64,000 nucleotides of DNA from Bugula neritina (lineage: Eukaryota; Animalia; Bryozoa): the NCBI GenBank assembly GCA_964035545.1, contig OZ037765.1, positions 25,295,504 to 25,359,503 on the forward strand, in the 5' to 3' direction. Both the position numbers and the translations under genes were made by a program. The notes beneath the pieces are model-generated. The model was not told the DNA's origin. It searched no databases and saw only the letters and a program-made list of their open reading frames with translations. Shown piece after piece: positions 2,384 through 63,466 of the stretch; the stretch's first letter is position 1, and each line of letters opens with the position of its first letter.

Positions 2384-5300
2384 TTGAGTAATTATTAGAG
2401 AAAAGTGAAATATAAAATATTTTATCAAACTAGTCAAATTTACTTTTATAGGCCATCTACTACTAATAGTTTTATACATTTATATATAATATAGAAAATA
2501 TTAGCATTGGATACACATAGATTATATTGGTGCTGACATTATATAAGGGGATATTCTCGTTATGCAACATATGTCCAGAATAATAATATCATATGCAAAT
2601 GAGTCGCATTAGCATTATTCCCATTTGTCATACAAATAAAATCTAAATTTATATTTTAGTTAAGTACTAGCTAAACGACTAGTACAACAGTTATAGTTAG
2701 CAGAGATAATCCTTGCAGATGACAACGTAAAATATAATGAATTATACAGCTCACTATATAAAGCTAGTATTTATACATATTTTAGAGGCTCAGCACAATA
2801 CTAATTGGCGTTTAGATGCAGCAGTGGAGAAATTCTGGTTTGAGAAAGGGTTTAAATTCTTGAGAGAGCATAACTTCTCATCTCACTTACAGAATATTCT
2901 CAATTTTTCCGTTACTGCATCTACTTCCTGAACAGGTAGTGCATAGCCCAACAGCACTCAAAACCAGAGGGCATAAATCCAATAGAAGAAATACTCCAAA
3001 GACAGGGTCAACAGATAGTCTGTTTTGTAACCTATTTTTTGAATAATAAAAATGAAAAAATTTGTCTAGGAGCAGAAAGTAGTTGTGGTTCACCATTTTT
3101 TTTTGAAAAAATCCTGTCTGTTAGTATTGTCCATGACAAGCACCAGTCCAAAATAGAATAGCTTCAAATCACATGGCTTTGTGTAACTCAAGTTGTATTT
3201 TTGACCAATTAATGCTAAACTCTCAGTACTAGCTAGACTGGTGCTCACTTTACAACGTTGCGATCAAGGTTCAAATCCCAGCTTCCATCCTCCCCATTTT
3301 TAGAACTGGCATAATGCATCAAGTACTGAAGCACATCACAAACTATTGATATTCACTTCTATAACATAATTGTGTATTCATGATAGTTTTATTTCTTATA
3401 GCTCGGGTTTCTAACATTTTAGTAGTCATTATTGGGGAAGGTTAAGCGAATAATGAATACAACAATTATGTGCTTTTAAATTTGAGGGAAAGGAAATATT
3501 TATAACACTGGCTAACAAATACCTCTTCAAAACACCAGTTGTCGAAATCTAGAGTTCATAGCAACCCTTGACAGACACCAACTCACAGACTAGTCAATCA
3601 ACTCTTCAACATTATGAAGGAGAAAGAGAAGAGAATTTACTTCATCCTGTTCTTAACTTGTAATCCACTATTACCAGTCATTAAACAAATATAAACTTGT
3701 AAGTATTATTACTGTGGAGATATAATATTATAGAGTGGTGGTCCGTGTGAAACATAATAGTATTAGTATACTGTTGATACTATGTATTATGTGAGTGCAA
3801 AATCCCTGTAAGCTTTGAATATGTTCTGATGAAGTAGTGATTGACAACATAATCTGCAATGTACACCACCATTCTACTATTTCAAACATTCCTTTACACA
3901 AAGTGACCAAAGCCTACATTCAATCTTCTACTCACTAGCAACTTTTACTTTCACATGCTTCAAGATTGGGAAATTTATTATGCCAGATTATTTTAAATAC
4001 TTATTTGGTATGTGATTATTACGCCTTTAGTAATACAATAACATATAGCAAACATAACTATAGTGCACTGTGGAAGAAGATGACAACTTCAAATCAATTC
4101 AATATAAATGAAATAGGAGTAAGTAAATACTATATTGTTTTGTACTAAGAAAGCAAAACTTGTTACTTTTGTATTACATGCAAAAAACCATGACACTGGC
4201 AACAAAATAATTTTAAAATCTTCATTAAAGATGCTTAGATAGAATAAAACCACTGACCACTATGTTTACAAAATATGAAAGCTATATTGCAAGTAAAAAA
4301 TTTCTTTAAATATACCAAAAGTGCACGTTATAAGTTCAATTTTGGAAATACATTGCTCTAATAAGATGTTAGAATGCTGTATTGCAGCCATACATTAATA
4401 AACCTTAAGGCTGTGTGGTCTTGAACTACCCTAGGATAGCAAAGTATGACAGAGTAAGAGCATTAGGCGATACATCAGCTATCGAACCTATCCATATATC
4501 CTAACCATTGAGATTCTATATTATAAAAAGCTATCAACTCTCGCTTACAAATATGCTATTGCAGCAACTAATTGATCTTCACACAAAACAAAACTTTGCA
4601 AACAGGAAATAATATTGATTTCAATGAGTTGGTTGTTTGTTTAAACAGCAGGATGTTATTTTAAATAAAAGAAATTGTAGCAAACAGGTAATTATTATTT
4701 TATATTCGTTCTCTTATTTCTGCAATAGAAGCTAGCAGTTTTAATAGTTTCAGTATGACAATAAAGTGGTCCATATATTGATACTTTATCACAGAACCTG
4801 CTAGAATTCCTATCATGCATGTTATTATATTCATAAGTAAAGCAAAGACCACATGTTATAGCTTGTAGCAGTGATAACTAAGCAAATGGTCGCTATTATA
4901 GAAGCCATTGATCTGGCTGACAGATCAATCTATACAGCGTATCATTAGATCACATGAGATGGTGATCTCTAGTGGACATGTCTACCATTTATCACAGTGT
5001 GGGATTATGGTACACGTGCACATGGACAGTTGGTTCTAATAATATGCTAGTTCACTGTAATTTTAACAACATAATAATATTGTAAGAATAGTAATTTATA
5101 TCTAGAATGTTCTATACCCAAGTAAACCATTAATTGCCTACTTCAACCTCACTCTTCTGACATAATGTTATCCATATGACGTTTTCTTGCACAAAACTTC
5201 AAGTCCATCTATTGTACAGTTCAACTGATGCTTGGCAGTCAGTCTCTTAGCTTTGCTTCTACTGCCTTAATAATATTGTGTGATACTCTAGTACTTGGAA

Positions 5301-5520
5301 TTTCTTGACTGAGTCAACTTGCTTAAGTGATGGACTGGAAAATTTTGATACATTTGCTACAAGCCTTCAAAATATTAAGTCAACTTGCCTATAATTTCAT
5401 TTTTAGCATTCAAAACAAGCTTCGAGTTAATTTCTTAGTCTTAATGGCTTCAAAGGGTTTGAGGAAACATTTCAGAAACAAACTTTAGTTTCAAAGTTAT
5501 TAGAGAGATTACACGGTTAT

Positions 5521-5622
5521 TGTGTTTGTGTGTGTTTGTGTGTGCTTGTGTGTGTTTGTGTGTGTTTGTATGTGTTTGTGTGTGTTTGTGTGTGTTTGTG
5601 TGTGTTTGTGTGTGTGCGTGTG
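5521..5622. repeat. 10-bp-period TG-rich tandem repeat (TGTGTTTGTG)n
   Basis: About 10 units visible; accounts for the spurious ORFs 5450-5665 and 5522-5746. Confidence 0.9.
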
Positions 5623-8600
5623 TATTGCTTTGGACATATTGACAATCCAGTTTAATCTGTTTCATATTGTTACAGAGTTAACCACCTGTATCAAACACCT
5701 GGCCGGTCTATTACCTTTACCAATATTTCACATAACAAAGAGATGATTCTTATTATTTAAAAATGATTTTAGAAAATTGTAATTTCATGTATTTCCTACA
5801 AAAATTTAGATAAGTTGGCATCTGATATCTCAAGCCTTCCGAACCAAATTAAAAACCAATTATACAAAACTTTTTCAATATTCTATTAGTTTTATGTCTA
5901 AATGTTGGTGCATCATGACAAAATAGAAAACATCATTCTTATAACATAACAATTAGTGGGAGTAGTGAAGTGCACAGAGCTTAGCATGCATGGACTCTTA
6001 CAGCAACATAAAAAAAGAGAACACAACTCTGAATATTGGCCTGCTTCAATAGTGTAAAAGCTATAACTATTTCTTAGAAATTTAAAAGCCCCTGCAAGCT
6101 ACATGTAAAGCTCTTAAAGGCAGACATAAAAATAAATTAAAAAAGTCCAATATACTGTGAAGCTGATCAATTTGTATCAAATATCATTTACTGTATTGTA
6201 TATTCAATTACAAACTTAATTTCCTAATTGATTACAAAACGTGGAAATTTTTGTATAAGAATAAGACTTTAGTAAAACTTGAAGACAGGCATTGAACTGG
6301 TAGTAATCATTTTAGTCACCACTCAAGATAAATAATGCAGCTTAGTCATGAGCTGCAAATCCCAAAGGGCACTGAATATAGTGAATATTCAACACGAGGC
6401 TGCATATCCCACTGACATACATAAATACACACAATCTATAGTATATTGAAATGATAGAATAAGTGATGAGTACAAGTAATGAGCTACAGTTTGCCGGCAG
6501 CGCTAGATGCTGCCAGTAAAATCCCAAAGGTTGACTAATGATTCTATGCTACAGACGTTAGACAAACATGCATACTAAATAGTAAATCGCTGAAAGCATT
6601 TTATGGTTTGATGGTAACATTTTTACCATGTCTCCGGAACTAGTAGAACTTTTCTATTAACATGTTTAGTATAACTAAATACTGCAATCAAATAATGTTT
6701 GTTAGATAAGTTAAAAACATATAAATACCATATATTTGTTATTCTACTTATCACTGAAGGCACAAAATTGCAAATAGAAAATGCTTTTTGCAAAATGCAT
6801 TACAATCTTATCACATATTTAACCAGAACTATATTTGAAGGTTAACTACTGTGCAATAAGTATCTATTGCTTGTTTAATTGTTATTGTTTTTTAAATTTT
6901 AGAGCATATTATTTATGATGAAGAATTTCCTATTCCTACTATAAGCTCAGGTATACCGAGGAGACAGCCTTTAGAGCTTGTGTGAACATGCATGGATTAT
7001 ACAACAATAGTTTTATAGCTGACATTAGTATTGACTATTCTGCACATTTCTAACGTATGCGTAAATTAATACTAATTTTCTAATACACTTTACAGCAGAA
7101 TATTGTAATTTGCTTTACGTGAAATCTTGCCCATAATAAATATAGATTTATTATTCAAGTTTAGAATGCAATTATAATGTAAAAGCTGTCTGAAGAGGCA
7201 GCAAACATAAGCAGAGAAGCTCACAGTATTATGCAGAACAAGTATTACATACACAAATAATTACCCTGCTGGTAAATGATCAATTTAGCAAAGGACAGCT
7301 TTTATATAGTTAGCTCATCAACTCAGAATTCATGTATAGAGTAGTGTATACTAAATATAGCATGTACTATAGATTGAATAGACATTGATTTTACACAAGA
7401 TATGAGATTGTTTGTCATTCCACGCAAAGCTAAGACTAAACCATGCCAACCGGCTGTCAATCTGCCAAAACAATTCTGAAGCTCACAAAAAGCAATCCTG
7501 ATCTGAAGATAAATCATGTCTCCAGAACTTCTAACTTCTCAGGAAATACGAATGGATGAGAAAGTATTGGATGGAATATCTTTGGTACTGAGCAGGTTGT
7601 TCTAGCAACAAGGCTACTTAAACTACTTCTGCTATAATAATATGGCTTATATTTTCACATCTTGACATGTTTTGGACCACCTCTATAATTAATTTGATGC
7701 ATAGTGCAAAGTGTTTACATGTTTTCGAGGGATAAAGTGACCAAAGGCCATCAGATAAATCTTGTTCATCTAGTGAAAAAATATGGTTCTTAACTAGAAA
7801 TAAGCTGTATTTCCATAAGCAGTGCGAAGTAATTAAGAAATTCAGGGTTTTTTGGTGATCTTGGTTACCAGATGTAAGTCCAACTGTTTCAGTTTTGGCT
7901 AATGGAGTAATTTACCACTATCTGTACAACTTTGCGAACCTGGTCTTCTTATAAGATATTCTGCAGATTACCAAGAATTTAGGCTTAGGATTAATTTGGA
8001 TCAATTGAAAGCCAGTTGAAAATCCTAATAAAATCTAGTATAAAATATGCAACAGAAAGTAAAAAGCAAAGATTATAATAGCAATCAACAATTAAAATGT
8101 AGAATTTTGATGATATGCACAGAGTACCTGGTATCAGTAATATAAAAGTTGATTAATCATTAGTCTTTGCTGTTAGATGGTTTGCTCATAGAATTCAGGG
8201 TAAAGCAGAGAATACATTTGCATGGAAATACAAGTTGCAATAACTTCTAACTTTATATTCAGCCTTCTACATTCACTCCTTCAATATTCTACAGCCCTCA
8301 GCATAGACATGCATTAGCTCTCTTTCTGTATATCAGCTATGCTATGCATATAAATTAAACTGATGCCTAACAGCTGAACTATAAACAATAGCAAAAACTA
8401 ACTTCTCACAACTATGTCGGGCACCTAATTAAGCTCCCCCAGCATTTCGCACTCAAGTTTGACAGTTAAACATATTGCTTTGAAAATCTTTAGCAAGTAT
8501 ATTGACATTACATGATTAAAAACGACTCCGGTATATCAAATTTTGTTAAAACTGAAGTGCTTGAATATTGAAACCTGTAAACAATAAGATTATATAGTAG

Positions 8601-14265: not shown

Positions 14266-37590
<23,325 letters not shown>

Positions 37591-37891: not shown

Positions 37892-38374
37892 CAGGGTTGG
37901 GGTCAATTACATATGAATGTAATTAATTACAATTACATGAGAATTTGTCAATTACAATTATAATTACCGTTAAAATAAATGTAATTAATTACAATTAAAA
38001 TCACATGGCAATGTAATTAATTACAATTACTTATGTTCTCACAAGAGACCAATAGAAGTTATATAATCGCCCTTCTGGGGTGTAACTACCAGGGGCAATT
38101 TTGACAACGGAAAACCTTCTTTGTTCTCAACAGTAACCAATAGGGTGACAACTATGACATGAAATTAATCTAAACTTTTTATTGAACAGTATGCAAGACA
38201 GGAAAGATATGAATTTTATAAGATTTAAAAATTTGAAGTATTTGTTATGTAATTATAAAGTAATTGTAAAATTCAATTACATTAGCAATGTAATTAATTA
38301 CAATTACATTTTTATATATCAATTACTTGAAAAAATGTAATTAATTACAACCAATTACAATTACCCCAACCCTG
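37892..38374. mobile_element. hAT-type MITE (483 bp) with perfect 8-bp TSD
   Basis: Ends CAGGGTTGGGGT... / ...ACCCCAACCCTG. TSD CTTGCAGC at 37884-37891 and 38375-38382. Several subterminal TGTAATTAATTACA palindromes at both ends. Confidence 0.92.
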
Positions 38375-44828: not shown

Positions 44829-45180
44829 TGTAGTAATTTGTGCAATTACTGAGCGTGAGTTATTTACTTGCGTATAGTTAGCTGGTTATTCTGTTATCAA
44901 TTACTAAGGTAGCTGTCGAGTAATTATATTTATTATCCACAATAAAGCATAAACCAAACATCACATCAAATTATCCTATACAAGAGTCAACTACTAACAC
45001 ATGTTACTACTACAAGCCTCCGCTTACAACAACGTGATATAATGTTAATAACCCGGGAAGTGTCACGTGAATCGGAAGCATATCTTCCGGAGCTGCTAAT
45101 TGGTTGCTACATAAGAGTCTAAGTATTCCAAGAGTAGGGAGAGGGCGATTCCTGTATTTGTACTTGCACTACTCACTACA
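44829..45180 (-). repeat. 3' LTR
   Basis: No differences from 49740-50091 seen on reading both copies. Confidence 0.96.
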
Positions 45181-45191
45181 CCGTCCCCCCC
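45181..45191 (-). promoter_or_regulatory. Polypurine tract (GGGGGGGACGG)
   Basis: Directly abuts the 3' LTR on the element strand. Confidence 0.85.
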
Positions 45192-45470: not shown

Positions 45471-46237
45471 TCATTGGTTGGGCTCTGATTCTTGTAGCGA
45501 CCGTGCTCGGTGTCGAGCCTGTCGGGCACGTAGCCGCCTCTTCAATCGCCCCACTGAGTCCTTCAACTGGTATAGACCTGTCGTCGTATCCAGCAGGTCA
45601 GGGGCAAGTTGTGTGAACTCGGCTTGCAGTCTTAGAAGCCGCTCTTCTACGTTAGCCAGCTGGCTAGGCCTTGGTGGGGTTGTAGTGGTCTCCGTTAGAC
45701 GGGATATGGTTGTTTCTTCTACTTCTGGGGTGTTGCTAGGGTTGACGGGGGTAGGAGGAGGGCCCTGAACCATAGGGGACTTATGGCGGGCAGATAGTAG
45801 CAGTACGTGAAACCCTGACGTTAGTGCGGCCAGGGTGATAGCCTTCCTGATGACTGGCTTGATGGCATCCAGGTATAGGGGGAAACTGTCTTCATCAACA
45901 GTGTGGTTCTCTCCGGCGAAGCAGCTTAGCTTATGTACTGTCACGGGATACGGGTAGACGTCGTGGAACCCGCAGGGACAGAAGTGGAGTAGGAAATGGG
46001 CGTCTACATGTAAACGCAGGGAGCGGTGCGACGGGCACTCCTCAAAGCAGACCTGGCAGGTTCGGTGTGGTCCACTGGGTCCCCAGGCTTCTTCAATTCT
46101 CCTCTCTGTCGTGGGTGACACCCAACGGTGTCGTCGGCGGAGTACTACGGGTATGCCATTCTCCATTACAGGCTCTTCTTCCATAGACAGAGAGGTTGGC
46201 TGGTCCCGTGACCGGGAGGTGGTCACTCGAGTGTGAT
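45471..46237 (-). CDS. Retroelement ORF3: C2H2 + C2HC zinc fingers and C-terminal coiled coil (main exon of a probably spliced gene)
   Basis: CQVC-x12-H-x3-H, then CPC-x12-H-x3-C, a Pro/Thr-rich linker, a leucine-rich heptad region and the basic tail LKRRLRARQARHRAR. Preceded by the acceptor CTACTCTTTCAG| (AG at 46239-46238). First in-frame ATG within the exon is at 46184. Confidence 0.8.
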
Positions 46238-46546
46238 CTGAAAGAGTAGCAGTGTTAAAGATTATACACTGAGGCACCGTCGGCGTATACAGCCTGACCG
46301 GTACTCTGTTCAGTTACACTCGTGAGATTCAGGCTAATGAATAGTTGATGGAGAACACACTCGCTATGACAGATTATTTAAAATCAAAGTCGACGTGTAT
46401 TCCCACCACTGTTTATCATTATCGAATCTCCAGCTAGCTAGTGTAGCTAAGCTGACTGATGCAGTCTAGTTATCGTACCAAAAACATAATTAACTCACCC
46501 TTCGATCCAGAATAGTAAGACATTTTGGAATGAGAGTGGTAACTGA

Positions 46547-48805
46547 TTACTGTTTACTGGCACGTCTACTCTCGACTGCATCAACATAGGAAAAGACCGG
46601 ACAGCGTGGTTGTGAAACGTGACTAGGGCTTTTCACTTCCAGCGGATGAATCTCGTGTGAGATTCCGCCGAGGCAAAAGTTGAGATTCTCGTGGTGATCA
46701 CAACTCCCACGGCTCTTTGCCTGCTTTCCCATGCGAGGCCTCTCTAGACTTTTGTTACTGCCGCTTATACCGCGGTCACGTACACAGTCTCTGAGACACG
46801 CTGGAAGTTGCCTAGTGTGTGGTCCTGGTCCTATGTTGGTATCTCCTTGCGGAGCCCCTCCCACGGGGGGTTTTTGCACTTCCGGACCTGTTTCTGGTTC
46901 CGGAAGTGGTGATGATGGCAGGCTTGACGTTGGGGGCGGTGAGCGCACTTTCAAGGACGGAAGTGGCCTTTCTCGCCTCGCCAAGTCTTCCTGACGTGTC
47001 ATGGAGGTGTTTCCGGCCAGGTTGACAGTCTCCGCCTGCCGAGACCTTCTCGCACAATGCGTCTGCCGCCCCGCTTCACCAGGGAGACGGCTATGCTTGT
47101 TGGTCTGGCAGACTTTGCACCGTCTCACTCTGCGTCGGATATCCCGTTCCATGTTAGGCCAGTACCACCGGAGTTGTAGCTTAGTGACCACCCCTTGGAC
47201 TCCTCCGTGAGTCTCCTCGTGGGTGTCTTGTATCAACTTCCGGCGGATGGCAACTGGGCAGACAACCCTCTTCCTGGCTGGCTGTCTGCTGTTGGCGGCC
47301 AAGGTCATGGTTAGCAGACCATCTGGCCCGACCCGCAGAGAGCTCCAACGTTGACAGTACAGCCGTAACTCGGCGCATCCCTGTCGCCGTTGTGTACTAC
47401 TGGGTCGTCGCCCCTCCTGTTTCGCTCGGTACACGTCGGCTACCACCCCAGGAAGGCATTCCTGGAGCTTCGGCAGCTCCCTAACGTTACCAGCCCATAC
47501 AGGTTTGGCGCGGAGGCTCTGGGCAGCCTCCGGGGGCGTGTCAGCCCTCTGTTGGAGTAGCTGAGCAGGGGCGGTCCTCGCCGCCCGTGGTACCTCACGG
47601 CAGCCTGCTCTATTTAGGCGGGCTCCGTGGTCTGTGTGGCTGAACGCCTCACTGTACCCATGTGGCAACCTAGCCATAGCCTGGCGCTTCCCGTTGCCTG
47701 CGCAGCCACGCGTCCCTGAAGGAGGGGAGGCGTGGGTTGGGACGGTCCTCCGCCCTCGAGACGGGCTCTGCTGAGGACCTTCCGTCGTAGCTCCCGACGA
47801 CGGCCCAATGGCTTCCTCCTGGACAGGATGGAAGCGACCCAGCATGGATCTGGGTGGTAGGTCTACTGTCTCTGAGAAGGGGTTGACACACTGCACTGAG
47901 ATCTCTCCTTGCCCCGTGAGCCGGCTAAAACTACGGGCAAGTTGGACTCTCGAGTGCGTACTTTCGACAACTCCCAACTTAGAGGTTTGGCCACCGTCTA
48001 CCTTGCAGCGGACGGTAGCCCGGGAGTGGCCTGGTATAGTACAGCTCCGTACTACCTGCACTGCTCCCGCTAGAGGACGACCAAACTTATCGACACAAGC
48101 GAGCTCCTTGTCGCCCATGATCATCGCAGATTTACTGAAATCGATGCGACAACCGTGTCGTTGTAAGAATGGCATCCCGAGGATAGCATCCTCGTTGAGC
48201 TGCCCGACGATAAACGTCTCTTGGATGGCCTGGTTACGGATGTAACCAGTTAGCTCAATAATGCCGTAGAAGGGAATGCACGACCCGTCTGCCAGGGTGC
48301 CATGATCCCCCTCATACGGTGCCAACCCGTCCTTGACCTTAGCGCTGAGGGTGTCAAAGAACTGACGGCTAAGGAGGTTGGTGGTGCAGCCGGAGTCCAG
48401 GAGGAAGTTGGCAGGCTTGCCGGCTAGCTTCCCTGGTAGGAAGTAGCTACTTCCGTGTGGCTGCAATTGAGTGTGCCGTGGTTGCACCTCCCTCGCTGTG
48501 GGTCGAGGGGTCCACGGTTGGCGGCGACTATTGACCAGCTGCCGAGGTTGGGGCGGTACACCTTGCGGCGCTTGTACCGTTTCCCTCGCAGGCTCTGTGG
48601 TCAACCGTCTGCCGGCTCCGTGTTGGTGCCGGAGTGGCGTAGGGGACCCAGGCGGCGAGTGGCTTGAGCCTACTTGCCGCGGGGGTCGCCACTTCACAGC
48701 ATCTCCGCGCGGCGCCCAGCGGGGCGACAGACGCGCGGGCCTCCCTGGGTGATTCACAGACGGCCCGCAGGAGGTGGGAACATCTGCGGGCCGGGGTAGT
48801 TTAAC
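46547..48805 (-). CDS. Internally deleted pol: aspartic protease + integrase HHCC finger; no RT, RNase H or DDE core
   Basis: Open frame, -1 relative to gag. LLDSGCTTNLL (about 48400) and ILGMPFL protease motifs. HEETHGG...YWPNM...CKVC integrase zinc finger (about 47225-47108). No YxDD, RNase H or D,D35E motifs in the translation. Confidence 0.85.
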   Translation of the reverse strand, partial: VKLPRPADVPTSCGPSVNHPGRPARLSPRWAPRGDAVKWRPPRQVGSSHSPPGSPTPLRHQHGAGRRLTTEPARETVQAPQGVPPQPRQLVNSRRQPWTPRPTAREVQPRHTQLQPHGSSYFLPGKLAGKPANFLLDSGCTTNLLSRQFFDTLSAKVKDGLAPYEGDHGTLADGSCIPFYGIIELTGYIRNQAIQETFIVGQLNEDAILGMPFLQRHGCRIDFSKSAMIMGDKELACVDKFGRPLAGAVQVVRSCTIPGHSRATVRCKVDGGQTSKLGVVESTHSRVQLARSFSRLTGQGEISVQCVNPFSETVDLPPRSMLGRFHPVQEEAIGPSSGATTEGPQQSPSRGRRTVPTHASPPSGTRGCAGNGKRQAMARLPHGYSEAFSHTDHGARLNRAGCREVPRAARTAPAQLLQQRADTPPEAAQSLRAKPVWAGNVRELPKLQECLPGVVADVYRAKQEGRRPSSTQRRQGCAELRLYCQRWSSLRVGPDGLLTMTLAANSRQPARKRVVCPVAIRRKLIQDTHEETHGGVQGVVTKLQLRWYWPNMERDIRRRVRRCKVCQTNKHSRLPGEAGRQTHCARRSRQAETVNLAGNTSMTRQEDLARRERPLPSLKVRSPPPTSSLPSSPLPEPETGPEVQKPPVGGAPQGDTNIGPGPHTRQLPACLRDCVRDRGISGSNKSLERPRMGKQAKSRGSCDHHENLNFCLGGISHEIHPLEVKSPSHVSQPRCPVFSYVDAVESRRASKQ

Positions 48806-49704
48806 CCTGGTGGGAGCTGAGGGCAGTTTCTCTGGAAATGTCCTGGCCTTCCGCATTCCCAGCAGAAGTGGTGCCCCATGCCTGGTGATTGTACCTGCGG
48901 CCCGCAAGGCTCACGGGCAGTATCTACCTGGCTTGGGGAGGCTAATGTGGTGACCAGTTTATCTAGCATGTCAGTCATCTGTGAGATTTTTGACGCTAGT
49001 GACATCTGGTTCACACTAGCCACCGCGGAGGGTTCCGCATTTAATTCGGTGTGAGCAGTAGAGTGCTCCGTGGTCACCTGGCGGGAGGCCACGCGGTTGC
49101 GGTGCATATGAGTCGCCAAGAGGTAGGCTTCTCCCACCGCAAGTGCATCTTCGACTGTGGTGACTCCCCTCGCTTGGAGTTGATGGTGGAGCCCCAAGTC
49201 GTTGATAGACTGCACGAAGGCATCATAAGTATACCTCTCACGGTGTACCGGAGGCAGATCGCGGAATGCAATCTGCGCTAGTGGGTACACCGTGGCAGCG
49301 TGCTCTTCTAGTGACGTGTGAGGATCACGCCGCATCCTCTGTAGACGGGCCCGCGCATCTATGGGAGAGATGCCAAAACGGGCCCGCAGGGAAGCAAAGA
49401 TTCCGTCTATGTCAGGTCCCGCTCCGTACGGCTTAGCTTTGCCCGTCAGCGCCATCCTGAGCTTGAGCAGCGCCACCCTTGGCGGCCACTCTGAAATCTC
49501 CATCACATCTTGGAATATTTGGATAAACTGCTCCACTGCTTCTTCGCCTGCGAAGGTGGGCGCCTTCATCCGGTATCTGTCTTCACCATACTCTCTAAGA
49601 ATTCTCACTTCTTCATCTAACACCACTGGTTCCACAGGTATATCAACATTATCTCTCTCACCTTCATTCAGTGGAATGGGTAGCTCCGTGCCGTCTTCTG
49701 CCAT
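48754..49704 (-). CDS. gag: Gag (capsid + CCHC zinc knuckle)
   Basis: ATG at 49704 just after the PBS. Gypsy-type capsid region (KAPTFAGEEAVEQFI...LRMALTGKA). CWECGRPGHFQRNC knuckle. Confidence 0.92.
   Translation of the reverse strand: MAEDGTELPIPLNEGERDNVDIPVEPVVLDEEVRILREYGEDRYRMKAPTFAGEEAVEQFIQIFQDVMEISEWPPRVALLKLRMALTGKAKPYGAGPDIDGIFASLRARFGISPIDARARLQRMRRDPHTSLEEHAATVYPLAQIAFRDLPPVHRERYTYDAFVQSINDLGLHHQLQARGVTTVEDALAVGEAYLLATHMHRNRVASRQVTTEHSTAHTELNAEPSAVASVNQMSLASKISQMTDMLDKLVTTLASPSQVDTAREPCGPQVQSPGMGHHFCWECGRPGHFQRNCPQLPPGLNYPGPQMFPPPAGRL
48761..48805 (-). promoter_or_regulatory. Programmed -1 ribosomal frameshift signal
   Basis: G_TTA_AAC in the gag frame (48805-48799), 5-nt spacer, perfect 10-bp stem CGGCCCGCAG / CTGCGGGCCG with a 13-nt loop. 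Confidence 0.8.
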
Positions 49705-49720
49705 GACTGCTATACGCAAG

Positions 49721-49738
49721 ATCCCACTGCTGCCACCA
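49721..49738 (-). promoter_or_regulatory. Primer-binding site, tRNA-Leu type
   Basis: TGGTGGCAGCAGTGGGAT, 1 nt inside the 5' LTR; complementary to a tRNA-Leu-like 3' end ATCCCACTGCTGCCA-CCA. Confidence 0.85.
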
Positions 49739-49739
49739 C

Positions 49740-50091
49740 TGTAGTAATTTGTGCAATTACTGAGCGTGAGTTATTTACTTGCGTATAGTTAGCTGGTTAT
49801 TCTGTTATCAATTACTAAGGTAGCTGTCGAGTAATTATATTTATTATCCACAATAAAGCATAAACCAAACATCACATCAAATTATCCTATACAAGAGTCA
49901 ACTACTAACACATGTTACTACTACAAGCCTCCGCTTACAACAACGTGATATAATGTTAATAACCCGGGAAGTGTCACGTGAATCGGAAGCATATCTTCCG
50001 GAGCTGCTAATTGGTTGCTACATAAGAGTCTAAGTATTCCAAGAGTAGGGAGAGGGCGATTCCTGTATTTGTACTTGCACTACTCACTACA
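49740..50091 (-). repeat. 5' LTR
   Basis: 352 bp, TG...CA ends. Contains AATAAA on the element strand, TCACGTGA, and an inverted CGGAAG/CTTCCG pair. Confidence 0.96.
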
Positions 50092-59900: not shown

Positions 59901-62900
59901 CAGAATCCGATGAGGTTGTTTCAGTGACCTGCAGATGAATTAATAGGTGCATAGCTGCTGATTTGAAGGGAGTGACTGCTACTGATACTGGTGTAGTTAG
60001 TAGATATTGTGTCGAATGCAGTTTTTTACACTTACTAATAACTGCTTACAAAAGCAGGCTATTTTATTTTCAAAAAAGACCATACACAACTGCTAAAGCT
60101 TACTTTTATGTTGAATATTATGTTTTCAACACTCCACAATTATCATTCAATTTAAATGAAATTAGAAAAGCACAATATTTTTTACAAAAATTGTATTCAA
60201 GAAACCAAAATATTCTTCAGTTACCGTCAACGAATTATTACTCACTTTCACAGGCATTGAGAAGGTTAAAACCATCAGACCTTTATCTGGTAGTTCGCCA
60301 ACATTGAGCAGCTCCAATGAATTCTCAACTGTGAAAATAAAGTCACTAGCGCTTCACAAGAATACCCTTTGAAGTGATCAAGTTACAATAAATATCAAGT
60401 ATAACAAGCTGTATGTTTTGTTCATGAGTTAAAGAACCTTACCTCGTCCAAGTAACCACCTGTGATAAAACCAAGCACTTTGGTCATTGGGATCTGTAAA
60501 GAAGGCATTTTGCACCAACTCCATTTCTGTAAAACATAAAATAATTAATATATAAAAATAACACAACAGAACATGTAAAATAATACTAAAATTCGTACAA
60601 CACTAAATCATATTATTATAGGAATGTGTTACTAAGAAGGCAAACTTTACTAGATAAACAACAGAGGTTGTATTATTGCAAAATGAGTATAAAATACAAT
60701 AGAGTATAGTAGTTATTTGCAACAACCTTCAAGCAGCGTTGACTGTTGAAGCCCAGAACTGTGATTAGTTTGTGCAGAAAAAAGTTGAGGAAGCAACTTG
60801 CTTCTATAATGCCACGATGAGTAATTGGAAAAGTTACTAGCAATCTTTTCAAATGTAAACTTGAGTTCATCTTCGGGTTTAACATTTGACTGCTTGATTA
60901 TAAATCGTCTGTAGTCCCAGCAATGAACTAAAAACACACATCATACTTTTTAGATTACATATCATAGAGAAAGCAAAAAAAGATTAGGGTCAATGCATAA
61001 GGAAACTTTCATGAGCTGTGGTCAGCAATAAAGTTTTGCACAGAGAGCAAAAATAAATTGAAAAAAACCTCGTAAAGGCCTGGCCACACGATCGTGAGAA
61101 TTACACGAAATCGTCTATTTGGCACGAAAAAACATTCGTACGAGAAAATTTGAGGGAATTCAAACGAAATCGTCATCGTTGGGTGTACACAACGATGACG
61201 ATGGACGAAAATTCACAATCGACGATAAGTGCCATTTGATTGGTCAATAGAATTTTAGCAACAGTGATTATTTCATTTCTACTACGTTTCTCTATTTGGC
61301 AATTTTCTGCTGCTTGTATCTCGTGCAAAACTCATTCACGGAATAATAAAAATGACTTGTTGCCATCAAAGTGGTATATATTAGGGGTATATATATATTA
61401 TACGCGCCAAATATTTATCACAAATTTCAAAAATAGCATAAATTAAGTAGTATTACTATGCCTATTTGCATCCAATTTACTAGTCTTGTATTTATAGCAA
61501 CTGTAATGTATTTTGCGTAAAATAGCTATTGCAAGCATTATTCAATTCATATTCACATTGTAATCACAGCGAAGCTTAAACTTTATAGCTTTGTATTTAC
61601 GTGCATGAGTGAGTTTTAAATTTTTTTTTAAATTTTATACGCATAAAAAGTGTGTTTGAAAACTTTACCAATAAACAAAACTAAAAAAAATGTACACATA
61701 AAATACCAAAAAAATAACAAAAATGGCAAAATTTTTCCTTTATAACTTATATAAACTTGCGGTATCAATCTCGGCATAATGACTTTTCGTCTAACGAGCG
61801 TGTGGCTGGTCAATACGAAAAGATAACTCACGAAAATCGTTACAAGAGTTTCGTGTGATTCTCACGATCGTGTGGCCAGGCCTTAAGAATGTTTTTTCGT
61901 GTCAAATAGACGATTTCGTGTGATTCTCACGATCGTGTGGCCAGGCCTGTACACCCAACGAAGACGATTTCGTTTGAATTCCCTCAAAATTCCTCGTAAG
62001 AATGTTTTTTTGTGTCAAATAGGCGATTCCGTGTGATTCTCACAATCGTGAGGCCAGGCCTTTAAGCAATCAAATATGCACATTTTTTTCATTAAATGGC
62101 AAATTTTGTTTTACAAAATTGCACTTCGTTACATTTTGCTCAATATAATGATTTTAACTTTTGCCTCAAAAAATATCTAAAACCCAGTCCAGTGTTGCAC
62201 TTACAATTTCGCTCATCATAGGAAAGAAAAGCATTGCATAGTGAAAGTTCTCTTTCCCAATCTGGCTTTGGAGTATGCGTCATTACATAACATCTGTGTT
62301 CCCAACTACCGTATGATTTGGGATTATATTTGAGACATTCTTCCAGAAATGTCAACTCATCAGAGAACAGTGCAAGAAGTTCATCTGAGCTCCTGGAAAT
62401 CCAACGTTTACATCAATTTTTATACAGATTAGACTGTTAAAAGCTATAATGAGCAAAAGAAATAACAGAGGCTAAACTTTACTCACACCTAAGTTAATTC
62501 TTCCATTTATTTAATTTTTGCAACAGCAAGTTATAAATTTGGCATCAAGTTTAGCATTTTCTATTTATAGCCAATATTATAGTAGTTAAATCGATACAAT
62601 ATTAGTACATTTTGCTAAGACATTTTGAGTATAATACTACAGTACAAAATTTTCATGGCAGAGTATCATAACTTACACAGATTTCTGTAAAAAATTAAAT
62701 ATCTCTTTCCTGTAATTCCACAAGGTGTATACATCTGGATTTTTGGAAAGCACGCCACTGGTGAGTTTGAGGGCTTCCACATCATATTCCCCAGCAGCTC
62801 TCTGTGTAACAACAAAATATAAATACAAAGACAAAACACTTGCGTCAACAAAGTATGAGCTGACTAAAAAACAATCATGATTTTGATGCACTAACCTTAG

Positions 62901-63266: not shown

Positions 63267-63466
63267 ACTCACGCTAGTTTATAGTCACCATCCCCGTAAG
63301 AACCCCTGATGAAAAGGGTTTTTTGTTAAATCGAGCTAAGGACTTATTTCATATGTGGTACAGGAGCAATTATGACTGGATGCTCTTCCTAACGTCACCA
63401 ATGGCCTTTGTTTGGGTTCGAACCCATGACATTGTGCTTACTAGGCAATCACTCTAACCCCTAGAT
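63267..63466 (-). mobile_element. tRNA-derived SINE, copy 2, with TSD
   Basis: Reverse complement aligns with 17604-17800. B-box GGTTCGAACCC. Flanked by the direct repeat CATT(A/C)AAAAGATATAA (63251-63266 and 63467-63482). Confidence 0.85.

Follow-up and report, generated by a model that had tools for sequence, protein, structure and literature searches.

The window analysed here, a stretch of 64,000 nucleotides, is gene-dense animal DNA with a GC content of about 32%, and the host exons in it belong to tektin, LRPAP1-like, WD40, mu-crystallin-like and prenyltransferase genes. A GC-rich element of 5.26 kb, running from 50091 to 44829 on the minus strand, lies between the LRPAP1-like exons (to ~42600) and the WD40 exons (from ~50900) (Table 1). 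Because its LTRs are identical, with TG...CA ends and a 4-bp target duplication, the insertion is considered to be recent. These ends, together with a primer-binding site (which we take to be tRNA-Leu-like), a polypurine tract, a gag with a CCHC knuckle, an aspartyl protease with a D-S-G motif and an integrase zinc-binding domain of the H2C2 type, place the element among those of the Ty3/Gypsy (Metaviridae) type. In a Pfam search, the reverse transcriptase (RT), the RNase H and the integrase core (rve) were absent from this copy, so that it is predicted to be non-autonomous, though more than its third open reading frame (ORF3) has been kept, namely gag, the protease and the integrase zinc-binding domain. 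The initial annotation, which had regarded the enzymes as lost, was correct for RT, RNase H and the integrase core, but not for the protease and the zinc-binding domain, which remain in a frame of 787 codons. This pol remnant still reads as a single open frame although both RT/RNase H and the integrase core have been lost from it. The same pol tail is matched by two homologues of ORF3 (P0034 and P0096), suggesting that pol-deleted relatives of the element are old. In X1, a run of unspecified type, the contigs of the element reach depths of ~4,300-6,200 versus 53-122 for the flanking bins, figures that are not a copy number and that hint at a multicopy family.

Table 1. Features of the element and of its third open reading frame (positions within the window; residues counted from the Met at 46184)
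Feature	Positions	Strand	Description and basis
5' LTR	49740..50091	-	352 bp, ends TG...CA, identical to 3' LTR; 4-bp target duplication on both flanks
Primer-binding site	49721..49738	-	Adjoins 5' LTR; from sequence and position
gag	48754..49704	-	316 aa, intact, one CCHC knuckle; Pfam zf-CCHC, E 5e-5
Predicted ORF3 first coding exon A	49662..49704	-	43 nt: first 14 Gag codons and one further base, with a phase-1 donor; donor scan and P0016 match
Pol remnant	46547..48910	-	One open frame, 787 codons; Pfam protease and integrase zinc-binding domain
RNA unique to the unspliced transcript, candidate cis element(s)	46238..49327	-	Predicted to be more structured than shuffles: ten consecutive 309-nt windows, z -2.8 to -5.9; synonymous-shuffle and host controls
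Predicted alternative ORF3 first coding exon B	46499..46523	-	ATG at 46523, phase-1 donor at 46499; donor scan, frame and X1 contig joint
ORF3 coding exon	45471..46237	-	767 nt; begins after AG acceptor at 46239-46238
ORF3 folded N-terminal domain	45765..46172	-	Residues 5-140, encloses both fingers; AlphaFold2 pLDDT 93.9, pTM 0.86
ORF3 finger 1	45996..46058	-	C-x2-C-x12-H-x3-H; sequence, Pfam zf-C2H2_4 in 18/44 family members, PDB C2H2 matches
ORF3 finger 2	45921..45980	-	C-x-C-x12-H-xn-C, with n = 3 in this copy and usually 3 or 5 across the family; sequence
ORF3 variable Pro/Thr linker	45669..45779	-	Mean identity 35% (close homologues); pLDDT 55-59
ORF3 58-residue heptad helix, then Arg-rich tail	45489..45668	-	Modelled helix 175-232; mean identity 83%
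Polypurine tract	45181..45191	-	Adjoins 3' LTR; from sequence
3' LTR	44829..45180	-	352 bp; AATAAA at 44934

The minus-strand frame from 46313 to 45471 is open for 280 codons and sits between the pol stop and the polypurine tract, where the initial annotation had placed a third ORF. Of the bounds that it gave (45471 to 46237), the coding exon is real, but position 46237 is the edge of a splice acceptor, i.e., the first base past a pyrimidine-rich AG, and not a start codon; the earliest Met of the exon lies at 46184. The zinc ligands are C43-x2-C46-x12-H59-x3-H63 and C69-x-C71-x12-H84-x3-C88, followed by a Pro/Thr linker (about residues 136-172), a heptad helix (173-232) and a basic tail (9 K/R vs 2 D/E), all of them exactly as previously noted. 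In the best register, 12 of the 17 a/d positions of the helix are hydrophobic, against at most seven in the other registers. The AlphaFold2 model consists of a confident finger domain, a disordered linker and one helix, and finger 1 is of the C2H2 kind both in its spacing and in its modelled beta-beta-alpha fold. An envelope protein, already discounted in the initial annotation, is likewise discarded here: the hydropathy scan revealed neither a signal peptide nor a membrane-fit segment that could serve as a transmembrane anchor (top 19-residue value, 1.43), and a value of 1.8 was reached by 8 of 198 homologues. A pattern scan found no NES-like patterns outside the folded domain.

A word-index search retrieved 151 close homologues of ORF3, of which the 120 listed span 49-98% identity and nearly all are nameless assembly proteins, while an exhaustive search yielded 85 representatives at E <= 0.001, about half of them with 25-45% identity. 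The family appears to comprise several deep subfamilies, with 25-35% identity; the tree serves only to show these, being a quick version built on 87 of the 198 eligible rows, with the close group thinned by hand. Each of the eight zinc ligands is retained in 89-99% of the close homologues covering it, and in an alignment of near and far members (n = 44) H63, C69 and C71 are invariant and the remaining five are present in at least 90%. Because all eight ligands are kept in near and distant homologues, the motifs are not a product of chance. Among the 120 listed homologues, mean identity amounts to 76% for the fingers and 83% for the helix and falls to 35% in the linker, an unevenness that reads as a pattern of constraint and is not a dN/dS. 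These data bear out the earlier view that the accessory gene is real, conserved and not an envelope gene, and that its product combines two zinc fingers with a long heptad helix. The full tandem motif was found in 104 of 215 family proteins (many being fragments), with the domain doubled in three, and the heptad stretch, by our own unshuffled criterion, in 14 of the 21 distant proteins whose tail is of sufficient length. No longer fused form of ORF3 was detected among candidates of 1044-2980 aa, which is weak evidence, and a search with the most distant family alignment recovered only 2 of its own members. Among the best-supported X1 variants listed, the silent-to-replacement counts were 13:11 in pol (p 0.01), 10:10 in gag (p 0.04) and 6:5 in ORF3 (p 0.09), with ~30% silent expected; the synonymous excess follows the same trend in all three genes, but in ORF3 it is not significant.

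A look-up of 26 proteins by cluster gave four clusters with a name: two are 'uncharacterized proteins' from Watersipora subatra, one is a hypothetical protein from Bugula neritina and one is labelled simply 'hypothetical protein'. Because the named relatives are from W. subatra and B. neritina, the family is probably bryozoan. In addition, 11 of 214 proteins had matches in other parts of the element (its intron, the start of gag, the tail of pol or the 3' UTR), a count from which two more that merely overran the exon edge were excluded, and these matches link close homologues to the element at the sequence level. Scans of metagenome contigs and of viral contigs gave no DNA locus for any ORF3 relative. 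The bryozoan gene models P0131, P0207, P0156, P0180 and P0213 share the ORF3 domain, three of them in two copies, and the analysis defines in this way an unnamed zinc-finger domain occurring in annotated bryozoan genes.

Profile and structure searches, of the kind that had been proposed for ORF3 and run here with Pfam, PDB, AlphaFold2 and Foldseek, resulted in a confident domain and in no match to a characterized ORF family. ORF3 itself had no Pfam match, and its PDB sequence matches, at E 1e-6 to 1e-4, were C2H2 fingers (HIC2, SALL3/4) covering finger 1. Foldseek searches of the PDB and of viral models gave nothing at E <= 0.001, and VIA-align found no chain at Z >= 5 among 48,161 for the ORF3 domain, an absence that is no proof of a new fold. 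The best likeness was Kaiso (Z 3.9), with only the finger part aligned, and recognition in the ESM Atlas was low, the leads being generic C2H2 only. In the libraries searched, generic C2H2 fingers were thus the only family or fold that ORF3 matched, and no paper on the family was found in the literature covered; subscription journals, Repbase and GyDB lay outside that scope, so a database entry may exist. Finger 1 resembles those of classical C2H2 proteins (HIC2, SALL3/4, Kaiso, CTCF) in pattern and fold. However, the ORF3 linker between the fingers is a hydrophobic one of five residues and not of the TGEKP type, the second finger is CxC...H...C, so that two canonical fingers in tandem are lacking, and the flanking helices fold with the fingers into one 136-residue domain. 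Position 6 of the recognition helix is hydrophobic in 63 of 63 near fingers and V/I in 26 of 37 far ones. Linker, CxC finger and position 6 all differ from those of classical DNA-reading arrays, and the frequent Arg at helix positions 2, 3 and 5 fits nucleic-acid contact.

A consensus splice-site scan of the element, which preceded the finding of the joints described below, listed 14 donor-like and 6 acceptor-like sites; the acceptor ahead of 46237 was one of them, as were donors that follow 49662 (gag codon 15) and 46499. Joined in frame to the ORF3 exon, exon A would give a predicted product of 269 aa; the donor of exon B, which is also of phase 1, would be equally in frame. In P0016, a protein 67% identical to ORF3, residues 1-14 match positions 49704-49663 (Gag) at 86% and are followed by the ORF3 exon at the predicted junction, this being the only Gag-leader fusion among 214 proteins tested. 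As for the second donor, one X1 contig skips 46238-46498, joining 46499 to 46237 with GT..AG ends on the element's (minus) strand; this joint comes from a single contig with 29 letters on its short side and was flagged as weak by the tool. The gag-to-46237 joint was not among the X1 joints listed (5 in one listing and 15 of 41 in another). An acceptor-compatible motif is retained in 29 of the 32 homologues reaching upstream. The P0016 and X1 records (one per junction, and not from RNA reads) may represent spliced RNA that was copied into DNA, in which case splicing would be implied all the same, and a spliced mRNA with gag-pol in its intron is represented by one sequence record for each junction. 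Expression of ORF3 is likely to proceed through splicing of the gag start, or of a mini-exon that follows pol, to the exon at 46237. As judged from sequence, this accessory gene is conserved and bears signs of being spliced to the start of gag.

The intron RNA is predicted to be structured, on z values each computed from 14-25 shuffles. The stretch from the pol stop to the acceptor (46238-46546) reached z -5.0 relative to shuffles, and its candidacy as a response element by itself was weakened by a sliding control, in which the whole intron was likewise structured. When 309-nt windows were anchored by us on the acceptor, 10 of the 11 lying wholly within the large intron scored between -2.8 and -5.9, and six other windows between -1.6 and +2.5; with 150-nt windows, the mean z was -1.76 inside the intron (n = 44) versus +0.11 outside (n = 21). 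In synonymous-codon shuffles, 9 of 10 gag/pol windows kept z <= -2.3 and two ORF3 windows gave -0.2 and +1.3, and the host control windows (n = 11) averaged -0.08, one of them at -3.0. The 3' UTR of the element was not structured (z +1.3). The opposite strand is also low in places, with z <= -3 in 3 of 69 windows versus 8 of 69 on the element strand. Covariation lent the intron structure no support: of the 7 variants listed, 2 disrupt a predicted pair, and a further two would be mismatches should they lie on the same molecule. An Rfam search gave only four matches, all at chance level. Over its full ~3.1 kb, up to the ORF3 acceptor, the RNA of gag-pol and intron is predicted to be ordered, in a way that resembles the genome-scale ordered RNA structure of RNA viruses.

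In the account consulted, most extra env-position ORFs of LTR retrotransposons are of function not known, and CERV, the ORF of the C. elegans Ty3/Gypsy element Cer1, was shown to export unspliced RNA (PMC10309623). As described there, CERV shares with ORF3 the env position without envelope features, a spliced mRNA with a 5' end common to gag and splice sites within the full-length RNA, a leucine zipper or heptad helix, a basic segment (in CERV, a localization signal) and a Cys finger. The same description gives CERV 517 aa, five exons, an essential C4 loop and a G-protein-like domain, and reports no homologue outside Caenorhabditis (PMC10309623), whereas ORF3 has ~265 aa, two exons, C2H2 and C2HC fingers and a C-terminal helix. 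Compared with CERV by description, the modelled ORF3, a double-finger domain plus one helix, lacks the CERV-family domains (H, M with the C4 loop, G-protein-like), and the two proteins appear unrelated, with no homology evident. Similarly, Rev and ORF3 are both small accessory proteins from a spliced mRNA, with an Arg-rich segment, an oligomerizing helix (predicted in ORF3) and a structured RNA confined to the unspliced genome; Rev, however, is devoid of zinc fingers, and for its compact response element and its clear export signal no counterpart was identified in the case of ORF3. Rex and Rec are retroviral export proteins of the Rev type with the same general layout.

The ORF3s of bdelloid LTR retrotransposons, of GDSL, DEDDy, coiled-coil and TM types, are likewise family-specific third ORFs after pol, typically produced from spliced messages, and one non-autonomous family retains ORF3 while most of pol is gone; these are enzymes or membrane proteins, and 'zinc finger' is absent from the main text of that paper (PMC5408684), as it is from the main text of a work on metazoan errantiviruses (PMC13524379). 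The literature covered also included work on Troyka (PMC12440569), and bryozoan repeat libraries are scarce according to the Flustra genome paper (PMC13326412). CERV of Cer1 is a precedent for the general design of a spliced 3' accessory gene with a 5' end common to gag, a Cys finger and a leucine zipper. Of the undescribed system that the initial annotation had suspected, what stands is the absence of a match to any described family in the libraries and papers searched: on present sequence comparisons ORF3 is an undescribed protein family within a known kind of arrangement.

The role that we favor, to which we assign a probability of roughly 0.4, is that the ORF3 product would bind the unspliced RNA of the element in the nucleus and license its export or its protection from splicing, by analogy with CERV and Rev. 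The element would need a means to keep or export unspliced RNA because its full-length RNA holds splice sites that remove gag-pol, and a regulator of RNA fate is our best guess because of the CERV-like layout, the Arg-rich tail and the structured intron. According to this proposal, early transcripts would be spliced by default to a short, unstructured ORF3 mRNA; the protein would enter the nucleus through its basic tail, oligomerize through the heptad helix and recognize structure in the 3.1-kb region found only in the full-length RNA, which would then yield Gag and protease and be packaged, with RT and integrase borrowed from an autonomous relative. What is directly at hand for it are the ORF, its motifs and conservation, the anatomy of the element and both joined forms (one record each). 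The proposal gains from the occurrence of both joints at sites listed beforehand, from the constraint on ligands, fingers and helix, from the 11 proteins tied to the element, from a structure excess that is present in the intron and absent from the ORF3 windows and the host mean, and from the precedent of CERV, as far as it is described in PMC10309623. It is weakened by the X1 joint resting on one contig, by the missing gag-to-46237 joint among those listed, by the lack of covariation in the intron and by the non-significant synonymous excess of ORF3 (6/11). Moreover, the NES-like patterns fall only within the folded domain, homology to CERV is not evident, and the structured region, 3 kb long and with no single compact response element, may serve packaging. 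Many retroelements also export unspliced RNA without an accessory protein, which counts against such a role.

The sole sequence and fold likenesses of ORF3 are DNA-binding C2H2 arrays, and this fact, together with the conserved Arg on the recognition helix, argues against an RNA target and in favor of a regulator of DNA or chromatin, either a dimeric activator of the LTR promoter, like foamy-virus Tas, or an anti-silencing factor recruited to element copies. Such a regulator is unlikely but ranks close behind the control of RNA fate: finger 1 is a bona fide C2H2 finger, the heptad helix and basic tail would suit it, and some bryozoan relatives carry two domain copies and an acidic N-terminus, in the manner of transcription factors. 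Nevertheless, the linker and the second finger are non-canonical, position 6 is hydrophobic, features that instead favor action on RNA, the fold scores are weak (Z <= 3.9, over the finger part), no enzyme domain is attached and the structured intron would be left unexplained. Less likely are two further explanations. That the first 14 residues are common to Gag in one joined form could mean that ORF3 acts on particles or copy number, co-assembling with, tethering or restricting virus-like particles through its helix and binding RNA non-specifically; the helix is the best-conserved region among close homologues, and ORF3 was kept with gag and protease in a lineage without RT and integrase core. 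This is nonetheless improbable, given that a second exon form has no Gag leader, that the basic tail would point to nuclear import and that deep conservation concerns the finger domain and not the helix. The least probable is a captured host zinc-finger gene riding as a passenger of little benefit to the element, as might be read from the homologues annotated as genes in W. subatra (RefSeq isoforms) and B. neritina, from distant subfamilies without a DNA locus in the metagenome- and viral-contig scans and from the non-significant synonymous excess; it fits poorly with conservation that is strongly uneven over the 120 listed homologues, down to ~50% identity, with dedicated in-frame splice sites tied to gag and with a frame that is intact in a copy that lost RT and the integrase core.

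A broader version of the control of RNA fate, which we hold to be rather unlikely in its entirety, is that bryozoan Ty3/Gypsy elements would have independently evolved a Rev-like switch, in which an old double-zinc-finger domain spliced to a Gag leader reads a genome-long structure unique to unspliced RNA, while a long-lived non-autonomous lineage keeps Gag, protease and regulator and relies on borrowed RT and integrase, the domain having also been exchanged or domesticated by hosts. The literature found shows one Ty3/Gypsy accessory export factor, CERV; if the idea were true, there would be a second, unrelated solution in another phylum, and regulation in the style of 'complex' retroviruses would arise repeatedly in retrotransposons. 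As the protein is small and folds well, the splice sites are defined and there is a candidate for the RNA target, the RNA-fate proposal is directly testable.

Elsewhere in the window, the region 61062-62064 contains inverted repeats that measure up to 117 nt and are separated by ~760 nt, along with internal repeats of 68 nt, and looks like a MITE or a nested small DNA transposon. A dispersed repeat of 61 nt occurs at 17637-17697 and, in opposite orientation and 84% alike, at 63387-63447, and its 17.6-kb copy resembles by eye a tRNA-derived SINE. Finally, the observations at 27592-27813 and 37896-38326 were a degenerate tandem array, which is built of 9-20-nt units and lies in a large multi-exon gene, presumably DNA polymerase epsilon-like from its peptides, and short AT-rich 40-nt repeats.
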